A stretch of DNA of 32,000 bases, taken from contig JAVYTR010000002.1 of NCBI GenBank assembly GCA_038728585.1, forward strand, positions 350,369 through 382,368, written 5' to 3'. The notes beneath the pieces were generated by a model that made no database searches, was not told the origin of the DNA, and was given only the letters and a program-made list of their open reading frames with translations. Source of the DNA: Conexivisphaerales archaeon. GTDB lineage: Archaea > Thermoproteota > Nitrososphaeria > Conexivisphaerales > DTJL01. The position numbers and the translations under genes were made by a program. Below, piece by piece: positions 27,187 through 32,000 of the stretch (position 1 is the stretch's first letter; each line of letters opens with the position of its first letter).

Positions 27187-27260
27187 GGGCCTGTAGCTCA
27201 GCCAGGTAGAGCAGTCGGCTCTTAACCGACGGGTCATGGGTTCGAATCCCACCAGGCCCG
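27187..27260 (+). tRNA. tRNA-Lys (anticodon CUU), no intron, CCA not encoded
   Basis: Hand-folded cloverleaf: acceptor GGGCCTG/CAGGCCC plus discriminator G; D arm GCTC-AGCCAGGTA-GAGC; anticodon arm GTCGG-CTCTTAA-CCGAC; T arm with GGG-TTCGAAT-CCC. One A-C mismatch closes the T stem. A T-rich tract follows the 3' end. Confidence 0.88.
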
Positions 27261-27315
27261 CTTATTTTATTAACCGAATCCTTTGTTACAATGGTACTGT
27301 AACCCTATTATATCA

Positions 27316-27624
27316 ATGTCTAACAGCAAGTATTCTCATCTGCTTGATGATGAAGATGTCAGGAGATGGTTTGACAACCTTGAGGCGAGTTCTGCGGTAA
27401 CAGCTGATTAGAAACCTTGGACCCTTTAGTGTGGAAAAAACCAGATGTTCATCTGTTGGGGTTCGCCGGTAAATTTAATTGCTCGGTTGAGGAGATGGTA
27501 AATGGGAGTTCTAAAGCAACAGGTGACCCCTCTAGCTTTAGTTGACTATATCTTGTGGCTGTCAGATCAAGAAGAAGAAAGACGGCCACCGCCAGGATTT
27601 TCTTTGAGAAAACATGACTCTTAA
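27316..27624 (+). pseudogene. degraded N-terminal fragment of a tyrosine-recombinase-type integrase
   Basis: ATG at 27316 gives MSNSKYSHLLDDEDVRRWFDNLEASSAVTAD*, which resembles the N-terminus of archaeal site-specific integrases (…V.RWY.NL..GS..TAD…). Further pieces continue in shifted frames (LGFAGKFNCSVEEMV..., LVDYILWLSDQEE...), interrupted by stops. No catalytic domain was found downstream. The family assignment is from memory only. Confidence 0.35.
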
Positions 27625-28308
27625 AGATCAGACTATACTCGGTCTTGATGATATCTAAGAATTATAGTTGACAATTCAACGAACGCGTCTATTCTATTCT
27701 GTGTTCTTGACCTTAAGAGCAAGGAAAACATCAACTTTAGTCTGACCTCCATTCAATCCTATTTAATTTGTTGCCGTGGTAAGTGCAATTGCAGCGAAGA
27801 ATATGCAGAGAAGAAAACAGCCTAAAGACAGTTGAAAGACTATGTCTTTATAAAAACTTGGTCACCATGATAACCAGAAACCTACCAAGTCTCTAGACAA
27901 TTTACTTTAGCTCTAAGCATTATGATTATTAGCGGGAGAAAAGGCAAAAGAGCCGAACAGTGTTGAGAATAGAATAAGACAAGATGATTTTACATAGTAT
28001 CTCGAGCACTGTCAAGAGAGGTCATTCGTCTGCCCGCTTGGGAACATCCCTGAAGCTGCCGTATGGTCTATTCGTAAAATGCCGTCAGAGAGTGGGACCA
28101 TTAAATCGCAGCTGAGGCCGCGCGCTAAATGTATACTCGTGCAGTGACAACGTTGCTCGAACAAGTACTTTTCTATACGTTTACAAAAAGAATGTAAACA
28201 ATATCATTAAATTGTTGACGAAACGAAGTTTTACTTGGATATACTTTAAGCGATGAGATATTTCCACATGTTATGCTACCTGTACTGCGAAAATTTGTCA
28301 AACGCAAG

Positions 28309-28316
28309 TATAAATA
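28309..28316 (+). promoter_or_regulatory. TATA-box-like element upstream of the mcrB-like gene
   Basis: TATAAATA ends 21 nt before the ATG at 28337, which suggests a leaderless or near-leaderless transcript. A second TTAAATAG at 28324-28331 could serve the in-frame ATG at 28352. Confidence 0.3.
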
Positions 28317-28336
28317 GCCTAAATTAAATAGATATA

Positions 28337-30121
28337 ATGGTAGAATATGCAATGAGATACATCGCTATTCAGGGTTCTCCGGTTAATTGGATCTGGAGCC
28401 TTAGAACCCTTGGAAAGAATGAAGTAGGTCCAGGATTTCACAAAGTAAATCCCAATAGTGAGCGATCATTAACCAAAAATCAAGACAAACTATTGTGGGC
28501 TTTTCGACAAAAACAAGATTTTAATAGACTTTCCGAGATATTACAATTCGAAGAGAAGGTTCAGGTGCTCGTCATTTCAACTGTTGGAAACAGCTATCAA
28601 TTGAATGCGGGGGGTGTGATAGCGTTTGGTGAGATCGTAAAAGAAGATGTTATTGGAGAACTCAAATGGGATTATTGGCCAGAGGGTTCTGGCTGGGATT
28701 ATAAGTTTTATATAAGAATAACAAAATTAGCACCGAAGCTGCAAGAGAACTTAACAAAACTTAATAATATCCAGTCTCCAGAAATTGGTAATTTAGTTTC
28801 TGTTATGAGAGAATCAAGGGAAGATGTCTTGCCAGTCGTCCCAAAAAGCGTGACCAGAGGGTCGCTATCGGAACTGGACCATAAGACGTTTGATATATTC
28901 GAATTTCTGGCCTCTAAATACTGGGTAAAACAAAGAGAAGTCCAAATAGGTGTCACAAGCCTGTCGGAAGACCTTCAAAAGATAGCTACCATGCATCTTC
29001 TCGCGGGTAAAAATATCATAGTTTATGGACCGCCTGGAGTGGGAAAGACAATATTCGCAAAGAGTCTTTGTGAAAATCTAGGAATAGGTTTCCGTATAGA
29101 AACAGGGAACCCAGAGTGGACCGCTTTTGATGTAATTGGCGGCTACGACATTAATAATAAGTTTCGTATAGGATTTCTTACAGATGCTGTAGTTTCATGC
29201 CATATTTCACTCAAAGAGAGCGGAAGACCATATTGGTTAATTATAGACGAAATTAATAGAGCAAACCTAGATCTTTCCTTTGGTAATGCATTCACAACAT
29301 TAGATCTAGCCCACCGGCCTAATACTCCATTGGTAGAATTTTATGAAAGCCTTGACGAAAACAAGGGTAAAAATGAGAAACTAATGTCCATACTTAAAGA
29401 GTACGGATCGAAGAAGATGGCCCTATTCGTACCGTTATCCTTTAGAATTATAGGAACAATGAACAGTTATGACAGAACACTTCTATTTAGGCTAGGCTTC
29501 GCAATGATCAGAAGATTTGCTTTCATACCATTATCCACGAAAAAGTACACCCTTTCAGTAAACGATGACACTTTTATTGAACAAGCTAAAATTTTGACTA
29601 ACGAGTCTAACGAAAACTGGAAAGAGACATTTCAAAGTGCATCTCGAGAATTGATGCTGAAGGGCGACATACAAAATGATTCCGTCACCTTTAGAACCGA
29701 TTCAATGCCTCAGGAACCTTACCTGATTGACGAGAGTTTAGGCGAATTATCTTCAGATTTGAATGCTTTTAGGTTGATCCACGCGATATGCCAAAGGATA
29801 AACGAGATTTTGGTCGGTAGTCTTGAGGTGGGTATGGCTTTGGAAATTGACGCAATGAAATTTATGCTAGCCGCTACCTCATATTTTGGGGAATCATGGA
29901 AAACATTCGGTAAAGGTCTGGTTGACCAAGCGGTTAACTCATACATATTGCCACAATTTGACGCGTTATCTGAACAACTCCGAGCTGAAGCATTGGGTAT
30001 GTCAAGCAGCCAAAGTGTACAAAATAAAGTAAAAGAAGTCAATGTATTATTCAAAAATCTGCGATTGAATGATAGCTTGGCCAGTATCGAACGGATAATG
30101 AACGGGGAAAGAATCTTTTGA
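28337..30121 (+). CDS. mcrB: McrB-family AAA+ GTPase with unrecognised N-terminal (putative DNA/modified-base reader) domain and long C-terminal extension
   Basis: 594 aa. Walker A is GPPGVGKT (aa 231-238) and Walker B is WLIIDEINRAN (aa 300-310). IIGTMNSYDR corresponds to the McrB MNTADRS/NxxD motif, and MIRRFAFIPL to McrB ALRRRFSFI. Aa 1-~225 and aa ~401-594 lie outside the AAA+ core. Confidence 0.8.
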   Translation: MVEYAMRYIAIQGSPVNWIWSLRTLGKNEVGPGFHKVNPNSERSLTKNQDKLLWAFRQKQDFNRLSEILQFEEKVQVLVISTVGNSYQLNAGGVIAFGEIVKEDVIGELKWDYWPEGSGWDYKFYIRITKLAPKLQENLTKLNNIQSPEIGNLVSVMRESREDVLPVVPKSVTRGSLSELDHKTFDIFEFLASKYWVKQREVQIGVTSLSEDLQKIATMHLLAGKNIIVYGPPGVGKTIFAKSLCENLGIGFRIETGNPEWTAFDVIGGYDINNKFRIGFLTDAVVSCHISLKESGRPYWLIIDEINRANLDLSFGNAFTTLDLAHRPNTPLVEFYESLDENKGKNEKLMSILKEYGSKKMALFVPLSFRIIGTMNSYDRTLLFRLGFAMIRRFAFIPLSTKKYTLSVNDDTFIEQAKILTNESNENWKETFQSASRELMLKGDIQNDSVTFRTDSMPQEPYLIDESLGELSSDLNAFRLIHAICQRINEILVGSLEVGMALEIDAMKFMLAATSYFGESWKTFGKGLVDQAVNSYILPQFDALSEQLRAEALGMSSSQSVQNKVKEVNVLFKNLRLNDSLASIERIMNGERIF

Positions 30122-31611
30122 GTCTGGTACTAGAGTTTAGAGAAGACAAAGACTATGAATGCGATGAAATTCAAGAAGTAATAAAACAGAAGTTACCAAG
30201 CCAACAGTCATCAACTCTTGTTGATGAAATAATTGAGTTTGTAGATAAGAATCTAAACCGCAGTATGCGAATCTTGATAGAGCTCCAATATTCTGATTTT
30301 AGGATAGAGTCTCCATTACCAGTTTTTCGCCATAGAAAAAGACAGATCAATTTCGGACAATGGGTTGGTGTGTATAGATTCTACTCGGAAGAGCTAGCTT
30401 CTGAAGTTACGATAAAAGTCGTTCCTAAAATTCCTCTTCAATCGTTCACTCTTATGTTGAATGAAGTTTATGGTCTCGTGCAAATGTACGGCGTTCCGGC
30501 TTTGGACGTGGTATCGCTTAATCTGCACGGTTATAGTAATTTCCGTGATTGTCTGACATACAGTTTCCTACTAAATAGGTTAACAGAGTTAGCTTTTGCA
30601 CATGGTATAGTTAGGCAGGCTACATTCGTACGATATTCTTCTGGAATACAGATGGGCTTGATCGACAGACATAGAACAGCCTATAATTTACAAAGGGGAA
30701 TACCACTGATAGAATCCAAGAAATTTACAGCGAAGTACCCTGATCTCTTTCTTATGTTATTAGTTAGGTTTCATTTAATGCTCAGTCATGATATCAATGA
30801 GCAAGTCGCTAGATTTAGAAACTTGAATCCAAACAAGGGCGATCCGTTGGACCACATGCTGAGTACCATTAAAGTATCGCAAGCTCAACATGCTAAGTAT
30901 CTATCAGATGGTATCTTGCAGAATTACATAGCTGCAGCACTGTCTTTTGACTTTGAAGATTTTGGGCTATTACGAAATATCCGAAGCGAAGTAAAGTATA
31001 ACGAATGGTTTAAGGCAATTGTTGACCTATTCGAATCTTACTTGTCAAAAAGACCCGTCAGAGTTAAGTTAAAAGAGTCAGATCTAAGCGAAGTTGCAGT
31101 TCAACCATTACCTTCCAGTAAGGTCTACGAGTTGTGGATACTTACACTGTTTAATCGAATATATGGAAAATATAACTCCAGAAAGCCAGTTATAATGCGT
31201 ACCAATAATGGATTCGATTTCGTTTATGGAGATCTCGTGATTTGTTATAACTCTGAGAAACTAGAATGGAGTAAAATCTTCTCAAAAATAATCAGAAATT
31301 CCCCTAGACCAGATATGATACTAGCTGGGAAACATAAAAGAGCTGTGTTAGACGCAAAATACAGAGAAGTGAACCATTTAGGCGTTGAAGATATAGAAAG
31401 GATAATCAGCTATCTAGTGGATTATTCGGAACCTCAGGACCATGATGAAATAAAAGGCTTTCTTGTAACTCTTGGTGATTTGAATGTGAACGAAGCTAGC
31501 CGTAGAGATTTGGTGCCAAACCTGAGAATCTATCATCTTGTAGCTGATCCCAACCGTCCGAAAGAAGCAGAAGAAAATTTAGAAAGAGTATACCACAAAG
31601 TATTTTCGTAA
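30118..31611 (+). CDS. mcrC: McrC-like partner protein with C-terminal PD-(D/E)xK nuclease domain
   Basis: 497 aa. The TTG start overlaps the upstream stop (TTGA). The N-terminal QWVGVYRF...VTIKVVPKI matches the McrC/DUF2357 motif (VGvi...ieIlPKi). The C-terminus has E338 (YELW), P-D399 (RPDMIL) and D412-A-K414 (VLDAKYRE), a canonical PD...(D/E)xK arrangement. Confidence 0.72.
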   Translation: MSLVLEFREDKDYECDEIQEVIKQKLPSQQSSTLVDEIIEFVDKNLNRSMRILIELQYSDFRIESPLPVFRHRKRQINFGQWVGVYRFYSEELASEVTIKVVPKIPLQSFTLMLNEVYGLVQMYGVPALDVVSLNLHGYSNFRDCLTYSFLLNRLTELAFAHGIVRQATFVRYSSGIQMGLIDRHRTAYNLQRGIPLIESKKFTAKYPDLFLMLLVRFHLMLSHDINEQVARFRNLNPNKGDPLDHMLSTIKVSQAQHAKYLSDGILQNYIAAALSFDFEDFGLLRNIRSEVKYNEWFKAIVDLFESYLSKRPVRVKLKESDLSEVAVQPLPSSKVYELWILTLFNRIYGKYNSRKPVIMRTNNGFDFVYGDLVICYNSEKLEWSKIFSKIIRNSPRPDMILAGKHKRAVLDAKYREVNHLGVEDIERIISYLVDYSEPQDHDEIKGFLVTLGDLNVNEASRRDLVPNLRIYHLVADPNRPKEAEENLERVYHKVFS

Positions 31612-31628
31612 TGTTATAGCATGTTAAA

Positions 31629-32000
31629 GTGTGGTGTGGACTGTTGACTGAGGAAGATTCAAAGTTTACAATCGGTAACTTAAAGACCTTAGTGAAGGAA
31701 TTTATATCCCAAAGGAAGTGGGAAAGATATCACAATCCGAAGGATTTGGCGGAATCAATATCCGTTGAGAGTGCTGAACTACTCGAAATTTTCCAGTGGA
31801 AATCACAGGAACAGAGTTGGTCTTTGGCTATGTCTGAGAAAGGCAGGACTAGGGTAAAAGAAGAGTTGGCCGACGTGCTGATCTACTGTATAAGCTTGGC
31901 AAATGTGCTTGGCTTGGACATCAACACTATTGTCAGAGAAAAAATCAAAAAGAATTCTGATAAATATCCTACAAATGGCTCAGAGAATCTCTTCGGGTAG
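31629..32000 (+). CDS. mazG: MazG-like nucleoside-triphosphate pyrophosphohydrolase, DCTPP1/RS21-C6 (dCTP pyrophosphatase) type
   Basis: 123 aa. WERYHNPKDLAESISVESAELLEIFQWKS and VKEELADVLIYCISLANVLGLDINTIVREKIKKNSDKYP closely parallel the DCTPP1 pattern (W.QFH.PRNL...GE.GEL.E.FQWK...; L.EELSDVLIYL...DL...I..K...N...YP) with the ExxE...ExxD metal motifs. The start is GTG 31629 or TTG 31644. The TAG stop is the last three bases of the window. Confidence 0.8.
   Translation: MWCGLLTEEDSKFTIGNLKTLVKEFISQRKWERYHNPKDLAESISVESAELLEIFQWKSQEQSWSLAMSEKGRTRVKEELADVLIYCISLANVLGLDINTIVREKIKKNSDKYPTNGSENLFG

Follow-up and report, generated by a model that had tools for sequence, protein, structure and literature searches.

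The DNA analyzed here, called the window throughout, is a stretch of 32,000 nucleotides (G000:C2:350369-382368) whose last position, 382368, lies 129 nt short of the end of contig C2 at 382497. Immediately past a tRNA-Lys(CTT) gene the GC content falls from ~0.45 to ~0.38 in the composition profile, and the low-GC island that begins there carries a cassette of three genes, Table 1, separated from the tRNA by ~1 kb (27262-28336) without long open reading frames. No other contig was found that overlaps the end of C2 and so continues the island, nor was a tRNA-derived att repeat found.

Table 1. Features of the tRNA-linked island, numbered from the first letter of the window.
Feature	Position	Strand	Description	Basis
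tRNA-Lys(CTT)	27187..27261	+	left border of the island	ARAGORN
Low-GC island	27262..32000		reaches the contig end, 129 nt past the window	composition profile
TATAAATA box	28309..28316	+	21 nt 5' of the McrB-like ATG; likely cassette promoter	
Gene 1, McrB-like AAA+ GTPase	28337..30121	+	594 aa; putative N-terminal reader region	AAA_5, PDB matches, motifs
Gene 2, McrC-like nuclease	30118..31611	+	497 aa; 4-nt overlap with gene 1	fold matches
Spacer	31612..31643	+	GTTATAG (31613-31619) and a GGTG Shine-Dalgarno-like site (31633-31636)	sequence
Gene 3, DCTPP1/RS21-C6-type MazG dNTP pyrophosphatase	31629..32000	+	123 aa (GTG 31629) or 118 aa (TTG 31644)	

The product of gene 1 matches Pfam AAA_5 (2.5e-12) and, among PDB entries, the McrB proteins of E. 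coli (6hz4, chain 6hz4_A, 5e-11) and T. gammatolerans (1e-8), and its translation contains the Walker A sequence GPPGVGKT, DEINRAN and MNSYDR (the NxxD signature). Against the NCBIfam McrB equivalog NF008457 it scores only 43 bits, relative to a cut-off of 637 bits, and is therefore regarded as a divergent member of the McrB group. Gene 2 gave no Pfam hit, PF10117 included, and nothing matched when the profile of this McrC-like family was run against PDB sequences, so that a search at the level of the fold was needed. The best fold matches of the gene 2 model are chains of McrC, a protein in which a C-terminal PD-(D/E)xK nuclease is preceded by a domain that binds McrB (6ut7_G, 5.5e-9, followed by 6hz4_M and 6ut6_G), and D399, D412 and K414 of the PD...DAK motif of the family are invariant in alignment A2. 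On the basis of these motifs and of the modeled fold genes 1 and 2 are assigned as a divergent McrBC-type restriction pair, with GTP-dependent cleavage of modified DNA as the predicted activity. An earlier note on this DNA had described the MazG gene as adjoining a type IV pair, and that description is borne out by the McrB motifs and PDB match of gene 1 and by the McrC fold of gene 2. Judged from named homologues of its geranylgeranyl reductase, the organism would belong to a deep branch of the Nitrososphaerota. The genome of the window encodes one N6/N4 methyltransferase; a C5-cytosine methyltransferase (PF00145) was not found in the assembly, which is 99.6% complete.

The reading frame of gene 3 is complete: it opens with GTG 31629 and closes with a TAG codon (31998-32000). 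The gap that follows the stop codon of the McrC-like gene amounts to 17 or 32 nt, depending on the start, as the earlier note had it. Of the two candidate start codons TTG 31644 is the better supported, since it gives an N-terminus of the length seen in homologues, is preceded by GGTG 7 nt upstream and is where the database gene call (P0001) begins. The protein belongs to Pfam PF12643 (MazG-like), scoring 69 bits over a gathering cut-off of 27 bits (E 4.3e-19). A search of PDB sequences places AF1178 first (4qgp, 1.3e-21), then mouse and human DCTPP1 (1e-17 to 4e-16), with the remaining MazG subtypes at 6e-4 or worse. By fold, the AlphaFold model (pLDDT 89.6) is closest to mouse dCTPase in complex with 5-Me-dCMP or dCMPNPP (6sqz_D, 6sqw_D; TM 0.78/0.87, rmsd 2.0 A), next to AF1178 and human DCTPP1, while Bacillus MazG, iMazG, YpjD and MazZ are far poorer matches with TM values of 0.55 or less.

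The protein aligns with mouse DCTPP1 without gaps, its numbering being shifted by 16 residues, so that the pocket can be compared position by position with the base and sugar contacts given in PMC13291643. The four metal ligands are conserved without exception, as are 12 of the 13 pocket residues. The ligands of the ExxE...ExxD motif, E47, E50, E79 and D82 (E63, E66, E95 and D98 in mouse), are invariant across the 33 sequences of alignment A1. The cytosine pocket is likewise present, with W31 and W57 in place of the Trp47/Trp73 sandwich and F25, Y34, I85, Y86, Y113 and H35 at the positions of Phe41, Phe50, Ile101, Tyr102, Tyr129 and His51. The sole change is at His38, which has been proposed as the second of two filters that select for cytosine in DCTPP1; gene 3 has Val22 at this position. 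Judged from these residues the enzyme looks catalytically intact, and Pfam family, PDB matches, modeled fold and pocket residues agree that it is of the DCTPP1 type and not a generic MazG, as had been claimed from the letters of the sequence.

Two features of the pocket count against a specialized activity on modified dCTP. At the position of His38 nearly all of the prokaryotic homologues that were examined carry Val or Ile, and one carries Ala, and a comparison of McrBC-linked with free-standing MazG proteins for specialized pocket residues revealed none, the two sets of pockets being alike. The pocket also speaks against a regulatory function, by which the MazG protein would hydrolyze GTP or a signaling nucleotide and so tune the McrB motor or a stress signal. 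McrB is GTP-dependent, and a connection with (p)ppGpp has been made for the tandem-domain MazG that the E. coli mazEFG operon encodes, so that such a function is conceivable; however, gene 3 retains the pyrimidine-type Trp sandwich of DCTPP1 together with His51, and its fold subtype is distinct from that of the tandem-domain enzyme, and we consider a regulatory role to be extremely unlikely.

The TATAAATA box that precedes gene 1 is not repeated in exact form anywhere else within the 32-kb window, and no comparable box was found before the MazG gene. A second exact copy lies beyond the window end (L001:1909-1916), 37 nt past the MazG stop codon, and is followed by a reading frame that contains a CxxC...C pattern and runs off the contig end (L001:1909-2001, 37-129 nt past the window); this frame is probably the next transcription unit. 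In the related cassettes of a metagenomic clade, clade A, described below, the spacers between McrC and MazG measure 31-40 nt, and four of five that were inspected have AGGAGG 8-9 nt 5' of a TTG start. The short spacers with their Shine-Dalgarno-like sites, along with the placement of exact TATAAATA copies 5' of gene 1 and 3' of gene 3 but nowhere between, fit a single transcript with internal translation starts, and gene 3 would then probably be co-transcribed from the promoter upstream of gene 1. An internal promoter that makes use of the weak shared GTTATAG motif is possible as well.

In order to place the cassette in a wider context a profile of the McrC-like family was used to collect 27 loci from metagenomes and GTDB genomes, whose neighboring genes were established by six-frame HMM searches. 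The family is rare, with 15 clusters among 5.8 billion proteins. The window and the loci L003, L004, L005, L007/L008, L009, L012 and L021 have a DCTPP1-like MazG gene directly 3' of McrC and in the same orientation. The order of genes is McrB-McrC-MazG in the window, McrB-McrC-MazG-X-Y in clade A, where X and Y are two further genes, and MazG-McrB-McrC in two genomes of different families, G085 and G034. In G085 (L071) MazG is immediately 5' of McrB, its stop codon abutting the McrB start codon. In G034 the MazG gene ends contig C1, the N-terminus of McrB comes next and the gene continues on C10, with a 19-nt overlap between the contig ends. Pieces of the G034 McrB gene recovered by tblastn are in different frames on either side of the contig break (L074:8340-8742, L091:1-1369), and the gene may be frameshifted or misassembled.

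Genes X (~110 aa) and Y (~221 aa) of clade A (L003:2793-3810, L007:2945-4049, L009:6663-7337, L012:3527-4426) returned no Pfam hit, and homologues were not found in the genome assembly of the window. Gene Y contains the sequence HEKAHE, a metalloprotease-like HExxH motif, and an Atlas look-up of its product gave sub-threshold leads only. At L017:2366-3379 X and Y follow McrC directly, with no MazG gene.

The lineages in which MazG and McrBC are linked are well diverged. McrC identities between them are ~40% or less (~40% for the window versus clade A, with G085 far more distant), and the genes that flank the clade A cassettes differ from one locus to the next. The linked MazG genes give dN/dS values of 0.06-0.21 at dS of 0.2-2.0 and, by this measure, are under purifying selection. 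Frequencies were obtained from an even sample of the phylum comprising 401 genomes. Strong DCTPP1-like MazG genes occur in 28 of these and a full-length McrC-like gene of the window's family in 8; three genomes (G000, G034 and G085) have both, and in all three the genes are adjacent. For comparison, chance adjacency is estimated at ~1e-3 per genome, at ~1,800 genes per genome. The linkage in G034 and G085 may go back to one ancestral event. In the MazG tree the linked genes occupy three places, and by AU tests neither one clade of all McrBC-linked MazG genes (p 0.097) nor one that joins the window and clade A (p 0.30) is rejected; ancestral linkage followed by losses and repeated recruitment are both possible.

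These data argue against the suggestion that gene 3 is unrelated cargo, a house-cleaning gene that shares the island but is functionally unconnected with McrBC. Most MazG genes of the sample do sit beside unrelated genes (SufBD, an ABC transporter, a B12-binding protein), sister McrBC clades do without MazG, and in the window the contig ends right after gene 3, leaving the downstream context out of view. Nevertheless, adjacency in three lineages with McrC identities of 40% or less, in two gene orders and with differing flanks, purifying selection on the MazG genes and the 3/3 adjacency in sample genomes that have both genes make cargo quite unlikely. Still less probable, in our view, is that the MazG protein serves a mobile element, for example by conditioning nucleotide pools for replication of the element, as has been proposed for MazG genes carried by phages. 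The cassette is located in a tRNA-linked, low-GC island, DCTPP1-like genes are found in some phage records and the clade A cassettes include X and Y; yet McrB and McrC are the sole constant neighbors, conserved replication or structural genes do not occur beside MazG, and in G085 MazG abuts the start codon of McrB itself.

The linkage has clear limits. MazG is absent beside the same McrBC in sister clades (L002/L006/L026, L010 and L017) and also at more distant McrBC loci (L019/L028, L020 and L022/L023), and in the genomes of L026 and L027 a DCTPP1-like MazG was not found anywhere. The gene is thus an optional rather than an obligatory component of immunity in the McrBC family of the window. 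Besides that of the window, the sample contains 27 strong MazG loci, of which two adjoin the McrBC family (L071, and L074 across the contig break) and 25 have mixed neighbors. Within this sample of an archaeal phylum the association is confined to the divergent McrBC family of the window; canonical McrC (PF10117) is present in 7 of the genomes, and a strong MazG gene in none of these. MazG is not a housekeeping gene in the lineage of the window: none of 56 genomes of family f2, which falls within the window's class, yielded a DCTPP1-like gene, and among 25 close relatives one has such a gene, as an unlinked copy.

Several further loci came to light in the course of these comparisons. At L083:7947-16336 (G214) a MazG gene lies ~5 kb from a radical-SAM gene and is followed by a pair on the opposite strand that consists of an McrB-like gene (family profile E 2e-73) and, in the McrC position, a 464-aa gene that matches neither Pfam nor the McrC profile; the locus was left out of the linked set because the pair is not adjacent to MazG. 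A Methanomethylicota MAG (L026:3987-10790) has two tandem McrB-McrC pairs without MazG, one near the family of the window and one distant from it. At the MazG-less locus L010 a 179-aa reading frame (L010:4197-4736), ~350 nt after McrC, has no Pfam hit and contains a D...EAK pattern, which suggests a small PD-(D/E)xK nuclease.

Taking all of this together, we view MazG as a partner that is conserved, though dispensable, in an archaeal McrBC family of rare occurrence, a pairing that is well supported and for which neither a description nor any link of MazG to McrBC was found in the searchable literature; a census of McrBC systems, PMC11090510, mentions neither MazG nor pyrophosphatases in its text or in two of its supplements. 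That the partnership is functional we consider likely. Gene 3 would encode an active DCTPP1 homologue, an optional third component of a type IV cassette that is mobile and otherwise made up of McrB and McrC, and the enzyme would most likely hydrolyze non-canonical nucleotides of the dCTP type, modified at C5, to monophosphates. Substrates of this kind could arise as modified dCTP made by a virus or by salvage from modified viral DNA that has been cut by McrBC and degraded. Two benefits might follow: the mark that the McrB reader recognizes would be kept out of host DNA, and the virus would be denied its modified dCTP building block. For a substrate of the modified or non-canonical dCTP type, to which the homology to DCTPP1 points, we put the chances at about even, while the statement as a whole, an optional cassette gene that clears modified dCTP for both host protection and viral denial, stands slightly below that. 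A further point against the choice of a C5-modified dCTP is the binding of m6A by an archaeal YTH-like McrB domain, as cited in PMC7641849.

Because gene 3 encodes a bare catalytic domain its activity should be constitutive, and this would be tolerable if, as is the case for DCTPP1, non-canonical nucleotides are preferred. Host protection and viral denial follow from the same predicted activity and are not separable by sequence. The earlier note, whose interpretation is supported in part, had offered three readings and left the choice among them undecided, namely a depletion arm of defense, a self-protection device and unrelated cargo; the last of these is now unlikely, given the recurrent adjacency and purifying selection, and the first two both rest on that one predicted activity.

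Depletion could also take a more general form, in which canonical dCTP or several dNTPs are lowered and viral DNA synthesis stalls, independent of any base modification; defensive dCTP deaminases and dGTPases provide the comparison. The identity of the pockets in linked and free-standing MazG proteins is in keeping with such an arm, as is the replacement of the Calcineurin-CE effector by a MazG-like enzyme in rare PUA-HAD systems (bioRxiv 10.64898/2026.01.15.699771). So, too, are plasmids of the Bacillus cereus group, where DCTPP1-like MazG genes are found beside DUF2075 (Nhi-like) nuclease-helicases, HNH and GIY-YIG genes and a type I restriction-modification system. They occur there in two contexts, the first comprising arrays of the form HNH - hypothetical - MazG - (GIY-YIG) - DUF2075 and the second a DCTPP1-like MazG gene adjoining a helicase-domain gene and a type I restriction-modification system. 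DUF2075 nuclease-helicases are not known to be modification-dependent, so a MazG gene beside them fits a more general role. On the other hand, a bare catalytic domain of 118 aa without a sensor or regulatory part would be constitutively active and hence costly, the closest characterized enzymes are sanitizers of the nucleotide pool rather than triggered effectors, and canonical McrBC is unassociated with MazG in the sample. We therefore regard general depletion, the main rival, as fairly unlikely, and retain clearance of modified dCTP-type nucleotides as the preferred role.

Arrays of the first kind are seen on the megaplasmids L101 (NZ_CP139484.1) and L102 (CP046512.1), and on L101 a separate (deoxy)nucleoside triphosphate pyrophosphohydrolase gene is located 2.3 kb upstream. 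In two genomes of different families (L059:4853-8351 and L060:4910-8345) a free-standing DCTPP1-like MazG gene comes immediately after a radical-SAM gene (434-446 aa) and a 591-595-aa gene on the same strand. For the large protein of these loci the Atlas gave only a weak NOV_C/DUF3883 lead, that of the 595-aa protein of L059 being sub-threshold, and the arrangement may represent another conflict cassette with a MazG partner. Finally, at L067:7959-9167 (G143) a frame of 402 aa has an N-terminal MazG domain and no Pfam hit in the rest; the matched stretch of sister genomes contains a TGA codon, and the long frame may reflect a lost stop codon or a fusion.

A broader proposition is that type IV systems need, or at least profit from, a dedicated sanitizer of the nucleotide pool that acts against salvaged modified nucleotides. 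Once incorporated into host DNA such nucleotides would turn the cell's own modification-dependent nuclease on the host, and the salvage route would be blocked by a DCTPP1-like MazG protein in the present case or by a Nudix hydrolase in that of SauUSI. We offer this generalization tentatively and consider it rather doubtful. If true, it would establish a logic of type IV immunity that operates at the nucleotide pool rather than at the DNA, would explain the linkage between SauUSI and Nudix hydrolases that has been open since 2011 and would mirror the protection of the mammalian epigenome by DCTPP1. McrBC, the textbook example of modification-dependent restriction, is regarded as consisting of two genes; that a pyrophosphatase is conserved beside it suggests that such systems work, or are kept safe, in part by controlling the pool of modified nucleotides. 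The theme spans unrelated folds, with Nudix enzymes beside SauUSI, and other nucleases as well, so that one answer could cover many gene pairs. Human DCTPP1 guards DNA methylation patterns and blunts the action of nucleoside-analogue drugs, and the proposed role would provide the first physiological function for prokaryotic DCTPP1 homologues along with an evolutionary context for the human enzyme.

Comparison with known systems begins with mammalian DCTPP1 (also RS21-C6 or XTP3-TPA; 2OIG, 6SQW, 7MU5), which belongs to the same PF12643 family, has the same all-alpha fold and aligns without gaps at ~35-37% identity. The metal ligands, the Trp-Trp sandwich, His51, Asp98 and Tyr129 are common to the two enzymes, while gene 3 lacks the N- and C-terminal extensions, has Val in place of His38 and is found in a restriction cassette rather than among housekeeping genes. 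DCTPP1 is further characterized by a homotetramer in which subunits share the active sites and by hydrolysis of dCTP and C5-modified dCTP. The mammalian enzyme is described in PMC13291643 as averting misincorporation of methylated dCTP. AF1178 of Archaeoglobus fulgidus (4QGP), the closest solved relative, is archaeal like gene 3, of the same size and 39-44% identical; it is a structural-genomics entry for which no published function was found. EcoKMcrBC and the McrBC system of Thermococcus gammatolerans resemble genes 1 and 2 in their GTPase motifs and in the overlapping downstream nuclease gene with the McrC fold and PD-(D/E)xK motif, and both McrB proteins have an N-terminal reader region, as gene 1 putatively does. 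The pair in the window falls below the curated cut-offs that define the classical systems (NF008457, PF10117), and a third gene encoding MazG is absent from those systems.

SauUSI provides a parallel from bacteria. Linkage to a Nudix/MutT hydrolase has been described for upwards of 60 type IV enzymes that resemble SauUSI (Xu et al. 2011, PMC3141236), and a Nudix neighbor of SauUSI appears in a figure legend of the EVE survey (PMC7641849). As in the window, a modification-dependent nuclease is accompanied by a conserved adjoining small nucleotide pyrophosphohydrolase. In S. aureus the partner is dispensable for restriction: its deletion, unlike that of sauUSI, produced no transformable phenotype (Monk et al. 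2012, PMC3312211), which counts against our main reading. The two systems differ in the hydrolase, Nudix as opposed to all-alpha MazG, in the nuclease, a PLD-helicase as opposed to McrBC, and in the host, bacterial as opposed to archaeal. A second parallel is PUA-Cal-HAD, where a PUA/EVE-type sensor of modified bases is combined with a nucleotide-hydrolyzing enzyme, the sensor being putative in the case of the window. PUA-McrB fusions have been noted, together with the rare PUA-HAD variants that carry a MazG-like enzyme in place of the dNTP-depleting Calcineurin-CE (bioRxiv 10.64898/2026.01.15.699771). In those systems the hydrolase is a triggered effector that is joined by a HAD phosphatase, whereas the cassette described here has no HAD component, has a nuclease as its effector and encodes MazG as a bare domain.
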